DNA from: Candidatus Heimdallarchaeota archaeon
GTDB taxonomy: Archaea > Asgardarchaeota > Heimdallarchaeia > Heimdallarchaeales > Heimdallarchaeaceae
Direction: 5' to 3'
Length of the DNA: 19,202 nucleotides
Assembly (NCBI GenBank): GCA_030668825.1
Contig: DAOVET010000045.1
Location: 1 to 19,202, forward strand
Each line of letters opens with the position of its first letter. Positions within the stretch are counted from its first letter, which is position 1. The position numbers were made by a program, and so were the translations under genes. The notes under the pieces are model-generated. The model made no database searches, had not been told where the DNA came from, and worked only from the letters and a program-made list of their open reading frames with translations. Shown in pieces: positions 1 to 17,931 of this stretch.

Positions 1-226
1 TAATTGGTAAAAGAGCCCATAAAATGCTTAAGGACCCTCTAATATTCTTAAAAATTATATTTTCAAAAATGATGAATATTAATAAAAGTGCTAACACCCA
101 GTTTTTGTTTAGAACTAAAAATCCAAATTGAATTGATATGATTACAATTCCAACTAATGGGTGAATTTGAAGTTTATCTGGTTTATACAGAAAACCATCA
201 TAAATTCTCTTTAACATAAAAGACAT
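1..226 (-). CDS. ecfT: ECF transporter transmembrane (T) component, N-terminal part; runs off the window edge
   Basis: Not in the ORF track. Manual translation from ATG at 226: MSFMLKRIYDGFLYKPDKLQIHPLVGIVIISIQFGFLVLNKNWVLALLLIFIIFENIIFKNIRGSLSILWALLPI, open to position 1. Hydrophobic, with an 'IHP' motif before TM1 as in EcfT/CbiQ. The start abuts the ATPase stop (TAGATG), with AGGAGG at 240-235. Confidence 0.75.
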   Translation of the reverse strand, partial: MSFMLKRIYDGFLYKPDKLQIHPLVGIVIISIQFGFLVLNKNWVLALLLIFIIFENIIFKNIRGSLSILWALLPI

Positions 227-1864
227 CTATTCAACCTCCTTAAGCAACAAGTTGAATTCTTTAGGATTAAGAATTCTAGGAAGAGAGATACCTGTTTCTT
301 CTTCTAGCTTTTGAATGTATCTTACAGTTTGATTAGGTATCAAATTTGTATGTTTTTCCAACTCATATAGCACTTTTCTAGGTGGTCCATCTAGACATAT
401 ATCTCCATTTTCTATAACAACCAATCTATCCAAAGATGTAACGATTCTAGGATCATTGGTTGCAAGAATGACAGTATTTCCATTTTCTTTTGCTGTTTCA
501 ACTAATTCAAGTAGAATTCTTCGACCTTTTTTGTCTAAAGCAATTGTAGGTTCATCCAACAAAATAATATCTTCTTGAAAGTAAAATGAGTTTACCAACG
601 CAAAAAGTCTCCTCTCTCCTTCACTCAAATGATAGAGCTTCCTTTTCATCAGCTTTTGCATTTTAAATTTGTTATAAATTTCTATAACTTCCTCATTATC
701 TCTAAGCTGTCTTTCCAAATCTCTTAATGGTGTAGGTCCAACTAGGAATAATTTTGCGTTTTCAGGAACATATATGCAATCTTTTTTTCCCTTTCTGACA
801 TTCTTGATTTTTCTTCCTTTTATCCATACTTCGCCTTTTCTTGCTTTTACAATTCCCAAAATGACTTTCATCAAAGTAGATTTACCACAGCCATTTATCC
901 CCATTAATCCTATAGATTCTCCTTTCTTCAATTGAAGATCTACATCTTTCAATATCCAGTCAGTTTTGTTGTTATATCTGAAATTAACATGATTCAGAGA
1001 AATGGTTGTATCACTTGGTGTTCCGTTTTCTAACTTGAGCAGCTCTGAAATATTCGCATTCCTAATTTTGGATACTATTCTTTTGGAATCTACTTGATCT
1101 TCAAGAGCAAGTACCTTTTCTTTATTTCTGAAATCTATCAAAGATAATTCTGGCGGGTCAATGTCTTCTAACAAACTTATATTATCCAAGGGATGTTCAT
1201 CACTTACTATCTTACCCTTTTTCAAAATAACTAATCTATCAGCTTTTGTCACAATATAGTCAAGACGGTGCTCAAATGCAATCACTAAATGACCATTATC
1301 AGCTAGTTTTCTTAGGAGTTCAACCAGTTTGACTTCTGTTTTTGGATCAATCCTTGCTATAGGTTCATCTAGAATAATGATAGGGGGAGCAAAGGCTAGA
1401 GCAGATGCTAAAAAGACTCTTTGCAATTCACCAGAACTTAACTCAGGAATTACTCTTCTTTGTAGTGAACTTATTTCAAGTTCAGCCAAGACTTGATTAA
1501 GTCTAGATATAATCTCTTCAGAATCAAGAGCAAGATTTTCTAATAGAAAAACAATTTCCTCCTCAACTAATAATGATATTGTAAAATCACTTGGATATTG
1601 AGGAACATATCCTAGTAAGCTAACAAGTTTTTCTCTTGTCAAATCCTTAAAGGAAATCCCATTATAAGAAATTTCACCAGAAATGTCAGCTTCAGTAAAA
1701 TTGGGGATTAAAGTCATCAGAACCTGAGCAAGTGTGCTTTTACCACTCCCGCTAGGTCCTGCAAAAACAACGAATTCTCCTTTAGATGCTTCAAAATTTA
1801 TGCATTTAAGTGCATCCTCATTGCTTGTCATGTACCTGACAGTTAAATCGTTTATTTGAAGCAT
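227..1864 (-). CDS. ECF-type ABC ATPase with two fused nucleotide-binding domains
   Basis: Two Walker A motifs (GPSGSGKS, GINGCGKS), two signature-like motifs (LSSGELQR, LSEGERR) and two Walker B motifs (IILDEP, ILLDEP). Lies between the S and T components. Confidence 0.92.
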   Translation of the reverse strand: MLQINDLTVRYMTSNEDALKCINFEASKGEFVVFAGPSGSGKSTLAQVLMTLIPNFTEADISGEISYNGISFKDLTREKLVSLLGYVPQYPSDFTISLLVEEEIVFLLENLALDSEEIISRLNQVLAELEISSLQRRVIPELSSGELQRVFLASALAFAPPIIILDEPIARIDPKTEVKLVELLRKLADNGHLVIAFEHRLDYIVTKADRLVILKKGKIVSDEHPLDNISLLEDIDPPELSLIDFRNKEKVLALEDQVDSKRIVSKIRNANISELLKLENGTPSDTTISLNHVNFRYNNKTDWILKDVDLQLKKGESIGLMGINGCGKSTLMKVILGIVKARKGEVWIKGRKIKNVRKGKKDCIYVPENAKLFLVGPTPLRDLERQLRDNEEVIEIYNKFKMQKLMKRKLYHLSEGERRLFALVNSFYFQEDIILLDEPTIALDKKGRRILLELVETAKENGNTVILATNDPRIVTSLDRLVVIENGDICLDGPPRKVLYELEKHTNLIPNQTVRYIQKLEEETGISLPRILNPKEFNLLLKEVE

Positions 1865-2722: not shown

Positions 2723-2737
2723 TATTATAACTTTTTT
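2723..2737 (-). promoter_or_regulatory. Archaeal BRE/TATA promoter of the ECF operon
   Basis: Minus strand reads AAAAAAG-TTATAATA (purine-rich BRE plus TATA-like box), about 45 nt upstream of the ATG. Confidence 0.6.
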
Positions 2738-2762: not shown

Positions 2763-4106
2763 TCAGAGAAAATCTATTAAATCTCTCATTTTTTCTAAGG
2801 TTTCAAATCCTTTCTTTGTTACTTTGAACTCCTTAATTTTGGTGTCTTGTTTAGATAATACTATCAATCCTTTCTCTTGAAGTTCATTTAGATGCTGATA
2901 AATAGATTGTTTAGATTTAGCTCTCCCTAAGGATTCCCACAGAGAAATTCCATAAGTCGCTTTACCTTCTGAAATGAGATTCAATATTTCAAATTTAGTT
3001 GTAGAACTTTCAGATAATCCCCAGACAACTTTTCTTCTATCTCTCAATTGAGTAGCATAAATATTGAGTGCATTAAAACCAGATCCAGAAAGAATCGCAA
3101 CACTATGTTGGGGATTTATTTCTTTTTCCTTAATCAACTTATCAGCAGCTGCTAAAACAGAAGCTGAAGCTGGTTCAATAAATAATCCCTCCTTTCTTGA
3201 AAGATTCAAAGCTTCCTCAATCATCTGTTGAGCATCAATTTCTATCTCTTTTCCTTTAGAAAACTTAATTGTCTCTCGTACTTCCTCTAAAAGAAAAGGT
3301 TGCTCTATTTCTAAGGATTCAGCCATGTAAGCACTCTTTGTTTTTTCTAAAGATATTGCATAGATTCTTGGGAGTTCTTCTATCCATCCTGAAGCAAGTG
3401 CATCTTCCAGACCTCTATAGATTGAATATATAAGAGATCCAGATCCTCTAGGTATAATTAATGCATCAAAAAACTCTTTTTGTAAAGCTATTTCTAAGCC
3501 CAAGGTTTTTTGACCTTCGATAGCTAAAATGTTGTTTTCAGGAGTTGCTAAATAGGTATTTGCTTCATTACTAAGCCTTTTTGCTTCAGCAATAGATTCT
3601 TCAACAGAATCGCCCATTTCGATTACTTTACTACCATAAATCTTCATTTGTTCAATTTTAGAAAGTTCTAAATTCTGAGGAATTACATTTTGAGATTTTA
3701 TTCCAGCTTTTGCTGCATAAGCAGATAAACTGATGCTAAAAGAACCTGTACTTGCACCAACTACTTGAGAGCTTTTGTTCTTAACAGCGTCTGAAATTAT
3801 CAAAGAACTAGCTCTATCTCTAAAGGATCCAGTAGGATTTCTGAATTCTAGTTTCAAACTTAATTCTAGAAGATTCCTTAGATTCTTAACCTTTAGAAGT
3901 GGTGTGTTTCCCTCATGTAAGGAAATAGGATTAGAATAATCTGGAAGAAAATCTCTTAATGACCACATAGATGTGAGAGTAATATTAGATTTAGAGGGAC
4001 CTTGAATTGGAGTAATAGATATGAGATTATTACATATAGAACAACGTAATGAATTACCTATACGCAAACTTCCACACTTTTGACAAATGTTCTGTTCTCT
4101 CTGCAT
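2763..4106 (-). CDS. Threonine-synthase-like (PLP fold type II) protein with N-terminal zinc ribbon, degenerate active site and C-terminal PadR/ArsR-like winged-helix domain; putative transcription regulator
   Basis: CQKC..CSIC ribbon. ThrC-like motifs SLHEGNTPL, KLEFRNPTGSFRDR, EGQKT and EGLFIEPASA. C-terminal FEILNLISEGKATYGISLWESL..SKQSIYQHLNELQEKGLI..FKVTKKG is a wHTH pattern. Confidence 0.85.
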   Translation of the reverse strand: MQREQNICQKCGSLRIGNSLRCSICNNLISITPIQGPSKSNITLTSMWSLRDFLPDYSNPISLHEGNTPLLKVKNLRNLLELSLKLEFRNPTGSFRDRASSLIISDAVKNKSSQVVGASTGSFSISLSAYAAKAGIKSQNVIPQNLELSKIEQMKIYGSKVIEMGDSVEESIAEAKRLSNEANTYLATPENNILAIEGQKTLGLEIALQKEFFDALIIPRGSGSLIYSIYRGLEDALASGWIEELPRIYAISLEKTKSAYMAESLEIEQPFLLEEVRETIKFSKGKEIEIDAQQMIEEALNLSRKEGLFIEPASASVLAAADKLIKEKEINPQHSVAILSGSGFNALNIYATQLRDRRKVVWGLSESSTTKFEILNLISEGKATYGISLWESLGRAKSKQSIYQHLNELQEKGLIVLSKQDTKIKEFKVTKKGFETLEKMRDLIDFL

Positions 4107-4154: not shown

Positions 4155-4349
4155 TCAGACAATCCCTGAAGGTTCTTCATCTTTGTCTATTAATATCTCG
4201 CATGAGCATAGATCATCAAAAATTGATTCAATTTGAAGAGATAAAGGATCCTCAAAATCTAAAAAAAAGTTCATGTCTTTCTTTTCTAAGCTGTTGAATA
4301 ACTGTATGAGAATAGCTCTTTCTTGCTTTGAATTCACTACAATGTGCAT
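4155..4349 (-). CDS. Small acidic hypothetical protein (64 aa)
   Basis: ATG-start ORF filling an otherwise empty intergenic gap. Plausible composition, no recognisable motif. Confidence 0.45.
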   Translation of the reverse strand: MHIVVNSKQERAILIQLFNSLEKKDMNFFLDFEDPLSLQIESIFDDLCSCEILIDKDEEPSGIV

Positions 4350-6874: not shown

Positions 6875-7570
6875 TTAAGAATCCAATATCTCTTCTATCC
6901 TCTTTCTATCTTTTTCTTCTAGAAGATCAAGTCCCTTAATATTTTTCTTCTCAAATCTTTGAAGGAATATACATCTCTCATGATGCCATCGATAGTTTAA
7001 ATGATCTTCAAAATAATGAGGTTCGCCTATTCTTACAGTATCCTTCTCAATATTTGAACCACACTTTCTGCATTTGGCACGACTGCTTTTCGCATATTCA
7101 ATTTTCCACTTCTCTTCTCGATCATACATTATAGGTTTGAAGTCTTGATTTTCCATGATAGAATTAATAATCTCATGGGGATTCCCTCCTCCTAACGCAT
7201 TTTTGTCTATCTTCAAGTGGAATGTATCGCGATTGGACAGAATGAAAGCTAGTTGTGCGGGTTTATCAATAATAAGCTTTTTCTCTACCATAATTTTAGG
7301 AGGTAATTTTTCGAAATCAATAATGTATTTTGCACAAGCTTTAGACATCAGTTTACTTAGTTCTCTTTTATTCATTGGTTGAAGCTTATTGCCATCAATT
7401 ATTCCATAAGTGGTCTGAATGACTGTTCTATCTATGTCATCTATGTATTCACGTTCTTTGAAAACAACAAAGGATTTATCTGGAACTTCATCAGTAATTT
7501 CTACAATTTGAAACGAATCAGGATCAACAAAATGACCCCATTCATTATCGGAATCAAGATTAATCTTCAT
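6875..7570 (-). CDS. Protein with unknown N-terminal domain and C-terminal PARP-type zinc finger (zf-PARP)
   Basis: IEYAKSSRAKCRKC..IEKDTVRIG..RWHHERC (C167, C170, H197, C200) followed by IKGLDLLEEKDRKRI, closely matching the PARP1/DNA ligase III finger consensus. Confidence 0.88.
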   Translation of the reverse strand: MKINLDSDNEWGHFVDPDSFQIVEITDEVPDKSFVVFKEREYIDDIDRTVIQTTYGIIDGNKLQPMNKRELSKLMSKACAKYIIDFEKLPPKIMVEKKLIIDKPAQLAFILSNRDTFHLKIDKNALGGGNPHEIINSIMENQDFKPIMYDREEKWKIEYAKSSRAKCRKCGSNIEKDTVRIGEPHYFEDHLNYRWHHERCIFLQRFEKKNIKGLDLLEEKDRKRIEEILDS

Positions 7571-11279: not shown

Positions 11280-14078
11280 TTAGGAGAAAAAGCACATCTT
11301 TATCTCATAAGGTTTGAAACTCATATCAAGCTGATTATCTTTAATTGTATCTTCTTTTATGACTTTACCATCTATTTTGAGCTGCTCACACTTTGTGAAT
11401 CTAGAATTTACTTGAAAAGTTGATGATTCACTTTCTGAGTTTAAATTGTATAAAGTAATGCACAGCTTATCATATCTTTTCCGCAAAGAAGAGATTCTAA
11501 TCCATGGATTAACAACATGTAAAATTGATTCAGATATTTGATTCTGAAGATCCACGTTCCTAATTAAGATAGACTTAGGTTTTAAGCAGAATGATTCAGA
11601 ATGATTATCACTTTCATACATAGGATCTTCTCTAGAATGAATAACAAAACCATATTCAAATGTATATTTTTCACCAATTTCTTGAGCTCCAGGAGTCTCT
11701 AAAAATGGTCCTGCATGCATTGGTCTTTCATCATAATCTGCTCTGGAAAGAAACCCTACACATCTTAAAAGTGTTAATGCAACTCTGGAATTATTAGCTA
11801 GTTCTACTTCTGGTAATCCTTTATTCATTAGTGAGAAAGCTAAATCTGAACCGTTGTCTTCTATTCTAATAAATCTCTTCTGAGCTTGAATACCAGAAGG
11901 TTGCTCTTCATAACTATCATAACTAATTGGATCACTTATACGTTTTACAACTCCAAAATGTGTTGAAGTAAGTGTTTCCAAAGATGAATAAGGTAAGTCA
12001 AAACAAATTCTTAAACGATGATCTTTTGCGTAATTGGTCAAAGTTGTTTGTATATCTATTCTTGGGATATCTCTGAAAAATCGAAAAACTGTTTTAACTG
12101 TAATAGTAACATTACCTACCCTTTTATCTCGATTCTCATTTAAATGTTCAAAAAGTTCTAGGGTCATATCCTGTTCAATTTCGCTGAATAGAGGTCCTTT
12201 GACAGTTAGTTTTCTTTTCACTTTCTTTATTTTAACAATTTCTGGACCTATTCTTCCGAATGTATATTCATCTCCCTTATCACCATAATCTTCAAATTTA
12301 TGAAGCTGAGCAAATTCTGTATTTGTTCTTTTGTCTAGATAATTAAAAGTCCCATCTGAATTAAACTTAAGTTCATAAAAATTTGTTGAAATCTTGTTTT
12401 TTGATGATAAAAATATTGAATCATCTTTAGTATAATCCATTTTCTCCAGAAGTTTAAATTCGTTGAAATTCCAGCCTTTGAGAGGTGCTAGAACACCATA
12501 GGTTTGTTTTGTCCCTAATGTCGCTTTAACGTGATATTTCTTGTATTTCTTACTGTTTAACAATTCAGCTGCTTGCTTCTTAAATTCATCCACGTCGAAA
12601 TCTCCAAGAGGAGCTTTTCCACATAAAAGAGTGACATCATATATCTCAGGATTAATGTTATCAGAGAGATATACCTCGTTAAGGTAATAATCTAGAATCT
12701 TTCTACCAGGTAACAATCTGAAACCTGCTCTTAACGCAAGAGGAGAGAAGGTGTTCTCAAACAAAATTTCCTCAGAGGAACTTAAAGATTGAACCATATA
12801 ATTGTTACCTAAACTATCCTGTAATCCTACTATTGGTTGTTTTGCAGGGGCAGAGAAATCAAAGAAAGATAGATTGTCAGAATTATTAGTTGGATTAAAA
12901 ACATATAGTTTTGTTTCATCTTCTTTAATTTCAAGCTTATCTAGCTCTTCCTTTAACTCATTTAACTGAGATTCTGCTATACTTTCAGCCCAATAAAACC
13001 TTGATTTCATTTCTTCATGTGTCTGATCTATTGAACAACCGCAAATACCATCATGAGTTTGGTTTTTCAATAACCATTTCCATGCTAGATACAGATAGGA
13101 TGTTGGATAATCATAGTTGTTGAATAACCAAAAAAAAGTGATTAAAGGTTCCACATAGTGAACAAGTAAATCTTCTATTTTCTGGTTCCACTGTTTTATC
13201 CACATCCTCATAGAATAGGTATCTTGAAGGAGATGAGTCCTTACAGATGAGCGAAATTCACCTGAATATTCAGGTAATAAATAACTTGTTTTTTGAAGTG
13301 AATCTTGCAACTCTGTAACATAATTATCTAACAAACTGAGGTTGATTTCGGTGTTTTCAATATCTACAAGTTTTGTTAAGATATTCATATTTGGATTAGG
13401 AAACTGATGATCAGTTCCATACATAAGAAGATACAAAGGAACAGGGGAAAATTGCTTTAATTGTTTTATTTTGTCCACAATTGAATCTTTTAAATCAGTT
13501 TCATTATCAGGTAAGTCTGCAGCATTACCATAACCTTTTGGCATGTACACTCCAAGAATTGAATCGTGAGAGTGATAATCACTTTTCCATTTGAAGGGAA
13601 CAGTAATTATTTCAGGACCAACTCCCCTCCAGATAACAGCTGCTTTGAACGAAGTAAGATTTGAAAGGATTTGAGGAATGGCTCTTGTATGTCCAAATTG
13701 GTCTGGAAGATATCCAATCTGCATTAAAGGAATATTTAATTCCTTAGCTAAATCAATACTTGTTTCTAAATTACGTATGAAACTTTCTTGCCCTATCAAC
13801 CACTCGTCAGGAAGTAAATACCATGGACCAAGAGCAATTTTACCTTCTCTAATTAAGGCTAGAAGTTCATCTTTTTTCTCAGGACGAATTTCAAAATAGT
13901 CTTCTAAAACTACCGTTTGACCATCAAGCATGAAAAAATAATCTTTCTTCTTTGTAGTTTCGAGTAACTCATCGATTAGTTTCACTAGCTTAACTCTGAA
14001 ATTTTGAAATGGGAGATACCATTCACGATCCCAGTGTGTATGAGGAACAATAAAAACTTCACTTTTCTCTTTTTTCAT
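11280..14078 (-). CDS. Glycoside hydrolase family 38 alpha-mannosidase (MngB-like)
   Basis: Zn-binding HTHWDREWY, FMLDGQ, GPWYLLPDEWL, nucleophile motif YLPDQFGH, GTDH and NQTHDGICGCSID. No signal peptide evident. Confidence 0.93.
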   Translation of the reverse strand: MKKEKSEVFIVPHTHWDREWYLPFQNFRVKLVKLIDELLETTKKKDYFFMLDGQTVVLEDYFEIRPEKKDELLALIREGKIALGPWYLLPDEWLIGQESFIRNLETSIDLAKELNIPLMQIGYLPDQFGHTRAIPQILSNLTSFKAAVIWRGVGPEIITVPFKWKSDYHSHDSILGVYMPKGYGNAADLPDNETDLKDSIVDKIKQLKQFSPVPLYLLMYGTDHQFPNPNMNILTKLVDIENTEINLSLLDNYVTELQDSLQKTSYLLPEYSGEFRSSVRTHLLQDTYSMRMWIKQWNQKIEDLLVHYVEPLITFFWLFNNYDYPTSYLYLAWKWLLKNQTHDGICGCSIDQTHEEMKSRFYWAESIAESQLNELKEELDKLEIKEDETKLYVFNPTNNSDNLSFFDFSAPAKQPIVGLQDSLGNNYMVQSLSSSEEILFENTFSPLALRAGFRLLPGRKILDYYLNEVYLSDNINPEIYDVTLLCGKAPLGDFDVDEFKKQAAELLNSKKYKKYHVKATLGTKQTYGVLAPLKGWNFNEFKLLEKMDYTKDDSIFLSSKNKISTNFYELKFNSDGTFNYLDKRTNTEFAQLHKFEDYGDKGDEYTFGRIGPEIVKIKKVKRKLTVKGPLFSEIEQDMTLELFEHLNENRDKRVGNVTITVKTVFRFFRDIPRIDIQTTLTNYAKDHRLRICFDLPYSSLETLTSTHFGVVKRISDPISYDSYEEQPSGIQAQKRFIRIEDNGSDLAFSLMNKGLPEVELANNSRVALTLLRCVGFLSRADYDERPMHAGPFLETPGAQEIGEKYTFEYGFVIHSREDPMYESDNHSESFCLKPKSILIRNVDLQNQISESILHVVNPWIRISSLRKRYDKLCITLYNLNSESESSTFQVNSRFTKCEQLKIDGKVIKEDTIKDNQLDMSFKPYEIKMCFFS

Positions 14079-17283: not shown

Positions 17284-17931
17284 ATGAATCTTCGAGCTCC
17301 AAAATCAAAAGAAACGTTTGCTGCATATTCACATGCTACTGCACTAATTTTTGCTATTATAGGTTCTATTTACTTGATAGTACTGGCAAGAGAAAATATT
17401 GGTTTGTTAATTGCCACAATTGTCTACTCTTTTTGTTTATGTTTTATGTTTGGAGCTAGTGCGTTTTATCACACTGTGAAAAGAGAAGATTTCGAGGAAT
17501 CAGTTTGGAGAAAGGTTGATCATGTAGCCATTTATTTTATGATTGCAGGGTCGTATACTGCTATATCGTATATATACACTGACGGCAATTTTAGGTGGAT
17601 TATTATAGGACTGCAATGGGGATTTGTAGTTGTTGGAACCATTCTCAAAATACTTTACATTAAAGTACCTATTTGGATTGATGTTGGAATATATTTAGTA
17701 ATGGGGTGGATGATTGTAATTAGGTTGGATTATATGTTCAAAGCCTTTCCACTTAGAATCTTTCTACTTGTTCTGTTTGGAGGTATAGCGTATACTGTAG
17801 GAGCAATTTTTCATGCATTAAACAAACAGAAACCATTCCCTGGAGTATTTGTATTTCATGATATTTTTCATGTTCTGATTATAGTTGGAGCTTCAGTTCA
17901 TTATAGTACAATTCTTGAAGCAGTTCTTTAG
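17284..17931 (+). CDS. Hemolysin III / PAQR family membrane protein
   Basis: About seven TM segments with family motifs YSH, SAFYH, RKVDHVAIYFMIAGSYT, YLVMGW, GGIAYTVGA and HDIFH. Confidence 0.92.
   Translation: MNLRAPKSKETFAAYSHATALIFAIIGSIYLIVLARENIGLLIATIVYSFCLCFMFGASAFYHTVKREDFEESVWRKVDHVAIYFMIAGSYTAISYIYTDGNFRWIIIGLQWGFVVVGTILKILYIKVPIWIDVGIYLVMGWMIVIRLDYMFKAFPLRIFLLVLFGGIAYTVGAIFHALNKQKPFPGVFVFHDIFHVLIIVGASVHYSTILEAVL

Follow-up and report, generated by a model that had tools for sequence, protein, structure and literature searches.

The 19,202-nucleotide stretch of Candidatus Heimdallarchaeota archaeon DNA analysed here (contig DAOVET010000045.1, hereafter the window) encodes, at positions 2763-4106 of the minus strand, a 447-amino-acid protein that combines a zinc ribbon, a threonine synthase (ThrC)-like PALP domain without the Schiff-base lysine, and a C-terminal PadR-like winged helix. 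We consider it highly probable that this protein, called the regulator below, is a homodimeric, pyridoxal 5'-phosphate (PLP)-sensing repressor of vitamin B6 genes, and that it represents an archaea-wide family derived from a catalytically dead ThrC fold. This reading is built on the architecture of the protein, the family-wide loss of the lysine, the linkage to neighbouring genes, and a common operator whose presence and absence match those of the regulator. The vitamin B6 targets and the candidate operator of the family are new here; no description of the family was found in the full-text literature searched, in which subscription journals are sparsely represented.

The four cysteines of the N-terminal zinc ribbon (C8, C11, C22 and C25; 4032-4085, minus strand) are followed by the PALP domain of a fold-type II PLP enzyme (residues 61-341; 3084-3926, minus strand; Pfam E-value 6e-56) and by a PadR-like winged helix-turn-helix (wHTH) that Pfam detects slightly below its cut-offs (residues 374-445; 2772-2987, minus strand), in which the helix Q400-S-I-Y403-Q-H405-L is conserved. 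In the family alignment A1, C8, C11 and C25 were invariant and C22 nearly so, and these cysteines are common to archaeal ThrC. Many homologues of the regulator carry a precomputed PF03551 annotation. The AlphaFold model of the regulator had a mean pLDDT of 84.3, and its best Foldseek matches were the ThrC structures 2zsj, 6nmx and 1uim (E-value 1.7e-22). The first-pass annotation, made from the letters alone, had described arginine in place of the Schiff-base lysine together with altered STGS, PRGSGSL and SGSGFN motifs, and this was confirmed by translation and by alignment to ThrC. The motifs NPTGSFRDR, STGS, PRGSGSL and SGSGFN start at residues 90, 119, 219 and 340, respectively, and HMMER alignment with the solved ThrC 2d1f and 2zsj (E-value 1e-30) placed R96, encoded by the AGA codon at 3819-3821 (minus strand), on the lysine of NPTGSFK, and S122 on the asparagine of STGN.

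Searching 1.84 billion cluster representatives with a profile yielded 18,138 hits at E ≤0.001, of which the best 150 were analysed. Three lacked the N-terminal part and were set aside, and the remaining 147 were scored for the winged helix with a hidden Markov model built from residues 366-447 of alignment A1. Among the 93 representatives with a winged helix, 91 had no lysine at the Schiff-base column, which was occupied by I (27), R (21), L (17), V (9), T (5), M (4), F (3), K (2) and, once each, by Y, S, H, A and N. The 54 unfused representatives had K in 51 cases and R in three, and two of these three arginine proteins were fragments of 199 and 247 amino acids. Since 91 of the 93 fused proteins lack the lysine, with varied residues in its place, whereas 51 of the 54 unfused ones keep it, the constraint on the family is 'not lysine', arginine being the version of one large clade. 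The first-pass annotation had proposed aligning homologues to see whether the lysine-to-arginine change accompanies the wHTH: the loss of lysine does (only 3 of 54 unfused proteins share it).

Closer to the window, the 100 nearest proteins of the same architecture, from Heimdall-, Loki/Promethearchaeota-, Thor- and Hod-type Asgard archaea, had arginine in 96 cases (P0001-P0095 and P0097; 32-95% identity), lysine in one (P0096) and isoleucine in three. The next 20 matches were ordinary Bathyarchaeia ThrC without the extension, and all 20 had the lysine. A genome scan found arginine in all 78 family open reading frames (ORFs) from 79 loci, a biased count, as the search pattern contained FRDR; among 120 sequences from an unbiased search started from a Thermococcus member, 114 had Arg and 2 had Lys, and 4 were unmatched. 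In the scan, the family extended over Asgard lineages, Bathyarchaeia, Desulfurococcales, Thermococci, Methanomethylicia and Methanomicrobia; the similar fusions in other archaea that the first-pass annotation mentioned do exist. The lysine is retained in P0096, P0173, P0176, P0244, P0251 and L150. These data leave next to no room for reading the gene as a decaying pseudogene, or as that of an ordinary threonine synthase whose sequence contains an error. AGA is indeed one base away from AAA, and the family model NF004170 does bear the name threonine synthase, but the same arginine occurs in 96 homologues down to 32% identity, alignment A1 has 38 invariant columns, the reading frame is intact, and the genome encodes a separate ThrC. 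The earlier opinion that the arginine is not a sequencing error was thus upheld.

The substitutions extend to the rest of the active site. Where ThrC has STGN-T, the family has STGS-F; PVGNAGN is changed to PRGSGSL, N-S-x-N-P-x-R before IEGQK to P-E/N-x-N-L/I-L-T/A, and TGHGLKD to T/S-G-S-G-F/L-N-A, and the ThrC loop after residue 253 is deleted. The substrate-phosphate columns contain N, S, R and T in 19-20 of 20 ThrC, and P, E/N, T/A and F in the regulator family; from the Thermus ThrC structures, we take the replaced residues to be those that hold the phosphate of O-phosphohomoserine. F95, the glycine-rich phosphate loop (G221, G223) and S/T340 are kept, and these are, on the same assumption, the residues that hold the cofactor. 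R89 is a new invariant residue of the pocket. A bifunctional enzyme-regulator, still catalysing a PLP-dependent or PLP-independent reaction, is quite improbable given these changes. It would have a precedent in the archaeal riboflavin regulator RbkR, described in PMC5397151 as an active enzyme, a kinase, fused to a wHTH, and the six lysine-bearing members listed above speak for it too. However, no single chemistry fits the R, I, L, V, T, M, F and other residues of 91 of the 93 fused representatives, and the substrate-binding residues of ThrC are gone.

The window genome has its own ThrC with the motif NPTGSFKSR, which scores 572 bits on NF006050 (cut-off 303). The regulator, by comparison, falls below the cut-offs of three ThrC models: 285 bits against 421 for NF004170, 96.8 against 167.1 for TIGR00260, and 125 against 303 for NF006050. 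It shares with threonine synthase (EC 4.2.3.1) the fold-type II PLP fold with ThrC topology, and, judged by its sequence, it lacks the other defining features, namely the lysine, the substrate-phosphate residues and an equivalog-level score. Both related claims of the first-pass annotation, that a plain 'threonine synthase' label would be wrong and that a non-catalytic sensor is fused to a DNA-binding domain, are supported by these losses and by the separate lysine-bearing ThrC. The match to NF004170 (PRK05638) is full-length and collinear, residues 8-440 of the regulator corresponding to positions 4-441 of the 442 of the profile, the wHTH included; with its score below the cut-off, the regulator is a diverged Asgard branch of this architecture family. 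Arginine-bearing members from Thermococcus and Desulfurococcales pass the NF004170 cut-off (726 and 436 versus 421 bits). NF004170 is an 'equivalog' named threonine synthase, and the Pyrococcus abyssi and P. horikoshii proteins are labelled likewise in sources; very likely, this product name is wrong for the proteins that the model describes.

A dimer prediction, which had been suggested earlier, was carried out. The predicted homodimer scored 0.79, compared with 0.00 for the best control, with the interface within the PALP domain; at least 71% of the contacts recurred from run to run, and the pLDDT of the partner was 79 or more. When the tool was calibrated, 20 of 30 proteins solved as pairs reached this mark, as did 1 of 23 solved as single chains. 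On this model, the PALP domain would act as both sensor and dimerisation domain.

Three genes of an energy-coupling factor (ECF) transporter lie downstream of the regulator on the same strand. The first, separated from the regulator by 85 bp, encodes a 266-amino-acid S component of family PF07155 (1877-2677, minus strand; Pfam E-value 2.9e-25; 89.7 bits against a cut-off of 26.7). It is followed by a fused double ECF ATPase A-A' of 545 amino acids (227-1864, minus strand), with two ABC_tran stretches and matches to ECF_ATPase models at E-value 3.5e-81, which are below the cut-offs of those models, and by the start of a probable T component truncated by the window end (2-226, minus strand). Homologues of the latter are weakly CbiQ-like; those in related loci (cluster 8, 241 amino acids) match CbiQ at E-value 1.3e-4. 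With its above-cut-off score, an adjoining fused ATPase and a T-like gene next to that, the S neighbour qualifies as a PF07155 ECF S component.

Neighbouring ORFs were clustered around the 79 loci, the window being counted as one of them. Among the 69 loci with at least 1 kb of downstream sequence, a same-strand S component was found downstream of the regulator in 33: 23 of 36 of Asgard type, 7 of 12 from Desulfurococcales/Thermoproteota and 3 of 15 from Bathyarchaeia, with none in the four Thermococci and two Methanomethylicia loci. A further 20 Asgard loci, with I, L or N (R in two) at the lysine position of the regulator, were hand-picked from lower-scoring full-length matches. The S component adjoins the regulator in 18 of these, mostly divergently and in two cases convergently, and these S components match that of the window with blastp E-values of 1e-17 to 1e-54. 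Because the linkage occurs in three orientations and across subfamilies, it speaks less for an inherited arrangement of genes than for a functional tie between regulator and S component. The remaining neighbours (acyl-CoA synthetase, GatD/GatE, threonyl-tRNA synthetase, ribose-5-phosphate isomerase, MCM and others) recurred within single lineages only, and these associations were set aside as apparent inherited synteny.

The only sequence match of the window S component in the PDB was 4hzu_S, HmpT/PdxU2 of Lactobacillus brevis (E-value 2e-8). In PMC4860826, pyridoxamine is reported as the bound substrate of this protein, six conserved pocket residues are named, and the name HmpT is traced to hydroxymethylpyrimidine. 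In 52 archaeal S components, hardly any variation is seen at the six positions, and four of the six named residues are identical: E41 of HmpT corresponds to E/D53, Y120 to Y201 (51/52), N140 to N223 (49/52) and Q143 to Q226 (51/52), whereas H84 is replaced by K96 (51/52) and Q87 by E99 (50/52). The archaeal proteins of Heimdall-type loci, at ~260 amino acids, are also longer than HmpT. NCBIfam gave TIGR04002 at 33 bits and a FolT family at 29 bits for the window S component, both below their cut-offs. We presume that the S component is a vitamin B6 vitamer-binding subunit.

A second connection to vitamin B6 comes from pdxS and pdxT, which adjoin the regulator in four loci (L017, L020, which is the same as L089, L090 and L091) and in three gene orders. 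In L090, the regulator (Leu), pdxS and pdxT follow each other on one strand; in L091, pdxT and pdxS are divergent from the regulator (Ile) with 95 bp between them; in L020, from the window's own genus, the regulator (Arg) is separated from pdxS-pdxT by two small ORFs on the opposite strand; and in L017 the regulator (Arg) is followed by pdxS. PdxS (PF01680) was not found in the window genome (90.6% complete), in five complete or near-complete Asgard genomes, in 99 of 121 sampled Asgard genomes (it was found in the other 22), or in any of five non-Asgard genomes with a regulator-S pair. A strict either/or of regulator and PdxS was rejected, as 9 of the 22 PdxS-positive Asgard genomes also hold a full-length regulator by the listed match ranges.

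A candidate operator was found in front of the S gene. The perfect 18-bp palindrome TTCAAGTT-GT-AACTTGAA (2700-2717) lies 23-40 bp before the ATG of the S component. A gap of 5 bp separates it from the TATA-like box TTATAATA (2723-2730, minus strand) further upstream, which together with an A-rich stretch resembling a B recognition element (2731-2737) forms the putative promoter of the ECF operon at 2723-2737; we base the promoter assignment on our assumption of the archaeal consensus. The palindrome has no other match in the window and no other match with up to one mismatch in the 2.76-Mb genome. A second match of its 14-bp core (C109:32757-32770) lies inside a 604-amino-acid ORF and was taken as chance. 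In 18 of 33 loci, the 120 bp in front of the S gene contain AAGTT-N2-AACTT, 14 of them the exact sequence and 4 a version with one mismatch; shuffled sequences gave 0.1% (exact) and 1.6% (one mismatch). These 18 loci include Heimdall- and Loki-type ones, one from Bathyarchaeia (L057) and one from Desulfurococcales (L072); L012 also carries the site but was missed in the count, as the placement of the ORF start cut it off. Related sites precede pdxS in L017 (two mismatches) and L089 (one mismatch).

The family Thermococcaceae, in which the regulator is not encoded beside its proposed targets, was sampled with 31 genomes, 20 of them with PdxS and 28 with the regulator (one truncated). Here, TCAAGTTTTAACTTGA stands directly after the TATA box of pdxS, followed by a second, imperfect copy. 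CAAGTT-N2-AACTTG with up to two mismatches was found upstream of pdxS in 14 of the 16 genomes with a full-length regulator, and also in the genome with the truncated copy, whereas in the three PdxS-positive genomes without a regulator the best upstream match had 5-6 mismatches. In all five tested genomes that have the regulator and in which PdxS was not found, the site occurs just upstream of a PF07155 S gene of ~200 codons (Pfam E-values 1e-37 to 1e-40), as a perfect 16-mer in four of them and with a single mismatch in one; the remaining one-mismatch matches in these genomes fall inside ORFs. The host of L150, the sole Thermococcaceae regulator with lysine, bears the site in its pdxS promoter as well. 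One candidate operator thus seems to precede the same two gene classes in Euryarchaeota and Asgard archaea, and this agreement across phyla matches the recognition helix, Q-A/S-I/V-Y-Q-H-L, which is near-identical from Thermococcaceae to Heimdall-type loci. Autoregulation through the palindrome was rejected: the site (≤1 mismatch) was upstream of the regulator in 0 of 77 loci and within 1.5 kb in none of 28 Thermococcaceae loci.

These data also bear on the suggestion that another factor binds the palindrome, the winged helix serving for protein contacts, for example if the regulator were a cytosolic carrier or chaperone for B6 that is attached to the transporter. DNA binding by the regulator is a prediction, and the operator is near the regulator gene in none of the 77 and 28 loci just mentioned; but the pdxS-upstream operator accompanies the regulator and is absent from the three genomes without it, operator and recognition helix are conserved together from Thermococcaceae to Heimdall-type loci, and the Thermococcaceae regulator is encoded away from its targets. 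We regard the suggestion as even a little less probable than a bifunctional enzyme. Less far-fetched, although still unlikely, is a regulator of the same genes that senses a ligand other than PLP, such as an amino acid, an O-phosphohomoserine-like metabolite or hydroxymethylpyrimidine, imported by the S component. The remodelled pocket (N122S, A253L and the new R89), the first naming of HmpT and the two differing residues out of six in the archaeal S pocket would fit such a ligand. Against it, four loci place the regulator beside pdxS-pdxT, which make only PLP and have the same operator in Thermococcaceae, and the protein retains the phosphate loop and the ring-nitrogen contact for the cofactor, whereas the site for the substrate has gone.

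Returning to a PLP-sensing repressor, we infer that the regulator binds DNA, that a B6 vitamer is its ligand and that the regulation is negative, and propose the following mechanism. A ThrC paralogue would have lost the Schiff-base lysine and the O-phosphohomoserine-binding residues while retaining the loop for the cofactor phosphate and the contact to the ring nitrogen, and a PadR-like winged helix would have been added at its C-terminus. PLP, pyridoxamine 5'-phosphate or a close B6 vitamer phosphate would bind reversibly and non-covalently in the old cofactor pocket, and the open-to-closed domain movement typical of the fold would set the two winged helices to fit the palindrome. The liganded dimer would then bind CAAGTT-N2-AACTTG between the TATA box and the expected transcription start and, since the site has this position, block the recruitment of RNA polymerase and shut off the genes for B6 acquisition; at low B6, the dimer would be released from the operator. 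The targets would be an ECF importer with a PdxU2/HmpT-like S component here and pdxS-pdxT in other genomes. With moderate confidence, we extend this to an ancient, archaea-wide B6 regulon under a ThrC-derived pseudoenzyme, in which one operator controls either pdxST or an ECF importer, depending on whether the lineage makes or scavenges the vitamin.

Several points count against this proposal. The cofactor contacts are altered, with Asn122 changed to Ser and an alanine, invariant in ThrC, changed to Leu253; we take this alanine to be the residue that stacks on the PLP ring, so that PLP may not sit in the pocket in the way seen in ThrC. The substrate of the S component is deduced from one distant solved relative (E-value 2e-8) with two of six pocket residues changed, and for HmpT/PdxU2 itself the substrate assignment relies solely on mass spectrometry and simulation. 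A Phos_pyr_kin (PdxK-type) kinase, which could phosphorylate an imported vitamer, was not detected in the window genome; in the five complete Asgard genomes, only weak matches were seen, in three of them. Neither target adjoins the regulator in 36 of the 69 loci, and a good many of the genomes in this analysis are metagenome-assembled and incomplete. Two of the 16 Thermococcaceae pdxS promoters have only a half-site-like sequence with three mismatches, and the I/L subfamily has another candidate motif, TATAGG-N5-7-CCTATA-like, despite a similar recognition helix. Residues 374-445 of the window regulator score 23.1 bits against PadR (E-value 7.5e-5; cut-off 27 bits) and 21.6 bits against HTH_45 (cut-off 25.5), while its orthologues exceed the PadR cut-off with 35.6, 43.2 and 47.5 bits. 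Finally, the confident interface of the predicted dimer is ThrC-like and the prediction may therefore echo solved ThrC dimers, and the winged helices were not confidently placed.

The closest functional parallel is bacterial PdxR (MocR subfamily of GntR), likewise a PLP-responsive transcription factor with a sensor domain resembling a PLP enzyme, which binds as a dimer to repeated boxes near the promoter, as we propose for the archaeal regulator. MocR proteins have a fold-type I aminotransferase-like domain and an N-terminal GntR wHTH, whereas in the archaeal regulator a ThrC-like domain of fold type II precedes a PadR-like wHTH at the C-terminus, and, in the absence of the lysine, any PLP binding could only be non-covalent. 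It would thus be a functional analogue of PdxR, neither a homologue nor a member of that group. PMC5320631 lists pdxST, pdxK and pdxU in bacterial PdxR regulons, of which pdxST and the ECF S component pdxU resemble the proposed archaeal targets, and describes MocR regulators as absent from Archaea. With ThrC (2d1f, 2zsj, 1uim and 6nmx), the regulator shares the fold, the dimer mode, the motifs NPTGSF-DR, IEGQKT and EPASA, and, in archaeal ThrC, the N-terminal zinc ribbon; it differs in the missing lysine, the replaced substrate-phosphate residues, the deleted loop after residue 253 and the added wHTH. ThiR (thiamine) is another archaeal vitamin regulator derived from an enzyme. Like the regulator, RbkR and ThiR join an enzyme fold to a wHTH and control vitamin biosynthesis and transport genes in Archaea, but their folds and vitamins are different, RbkR is still an active kinase, and the sensor of the regulator descends from an enzyme that uses the cofactor rather than from one of the B6 pathway.

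If the proposal is correct, no B6 regulator would have been proposed for Archaea before this one, and no earlier PLP sensor would be built on a fold-type II domain; the regulator would be an archaeal counterpart of PdxR that arose independently from a different PLP fold. The loss of the lysine to R, I, L, V and other residues would have converted a site of covalent cofactor attachment into one that senses a ligand reversibly, a natural example of an enzyme becoming a sensor by losing its catalytic lysine, and the operator CAAGTT-N2-AACTTG would have been kept from Thermococcales to Heimdall-type Asgard archaea. Most sampled Asgard archaea would be B6 scavengers, a point of relevance to their syntrophic lifestyle and to the media in which they are cultivated. 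The reading would also correct the NF004170 name 'threonine synthase' carried by cultured Pyrococcus and Thermococcus genomes, and the predicted operator and small regulon are open to a direct test in the genetically tractable Thermococcales.

Some further features of the loci were recorded. In the short divergent intergenic regions between regulator and S gene (L092-L109, L090 and L091), an inverted repeat, CTATATAGG-N5-7-CCTATATA or CTTATATA, is present, and in L091 this repeat of the I/L/N subfamily also occurs between pdxS and the regulator; it may be a subfamily-specific operator or two divergent TATA boxes. In the Thermococcaceae loci L160-L164, the operator-bearing S gene follows a gene for a class-III aminotransferase, a PLP enzyme; aminotransferases are also reported from bacterial PdxR regulons. 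Five Desulfurococcales loci (L052, L053, L061, L069 and L070) have a threonyl-tRNA synthetase gene close downstream of the regulator in convergent orientation, a curious neighbour for a ThrC-derived regulator but probably a matter of lineage synteny. Many Heimdall-type loci (L010-L012, L014, L016, L023, L024, L026, L027, L033 and L041) have a regulator-S spacing of 0.5-1.8 kb that holds an ORF of ~115-122 amino acids on the opposite strand (clusters 18 and 32), which is absent from the window. Directly upstream of the window regulator and on the same strand is an ORF for an acidic protein of 64 amino acids (4155-4349, minus strand), without a Pfam match. By tblastn, it occupies the same position in 26 Heimdall-type loci with 44-98% identity, and it may share a transcript with the regulator or act as its partner.

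Elsewhere in the window, a 231-amino-acid protein (6875-7570, minus strand) has a C-terminal zf-PARP zinc finger of the PARP/DNA-ligase type (E-value 4e-16), best known from eukaryotes. Two more members of eukaryote-flavoured families in this Asgard genome are a GH38 alpha-mannosidase-like protein of 932 amino acids (11280-14078, minus strand) and a haemolysin-III/PAQR-family membrane protein of 215 amino acids (17284-17931, plus strand).

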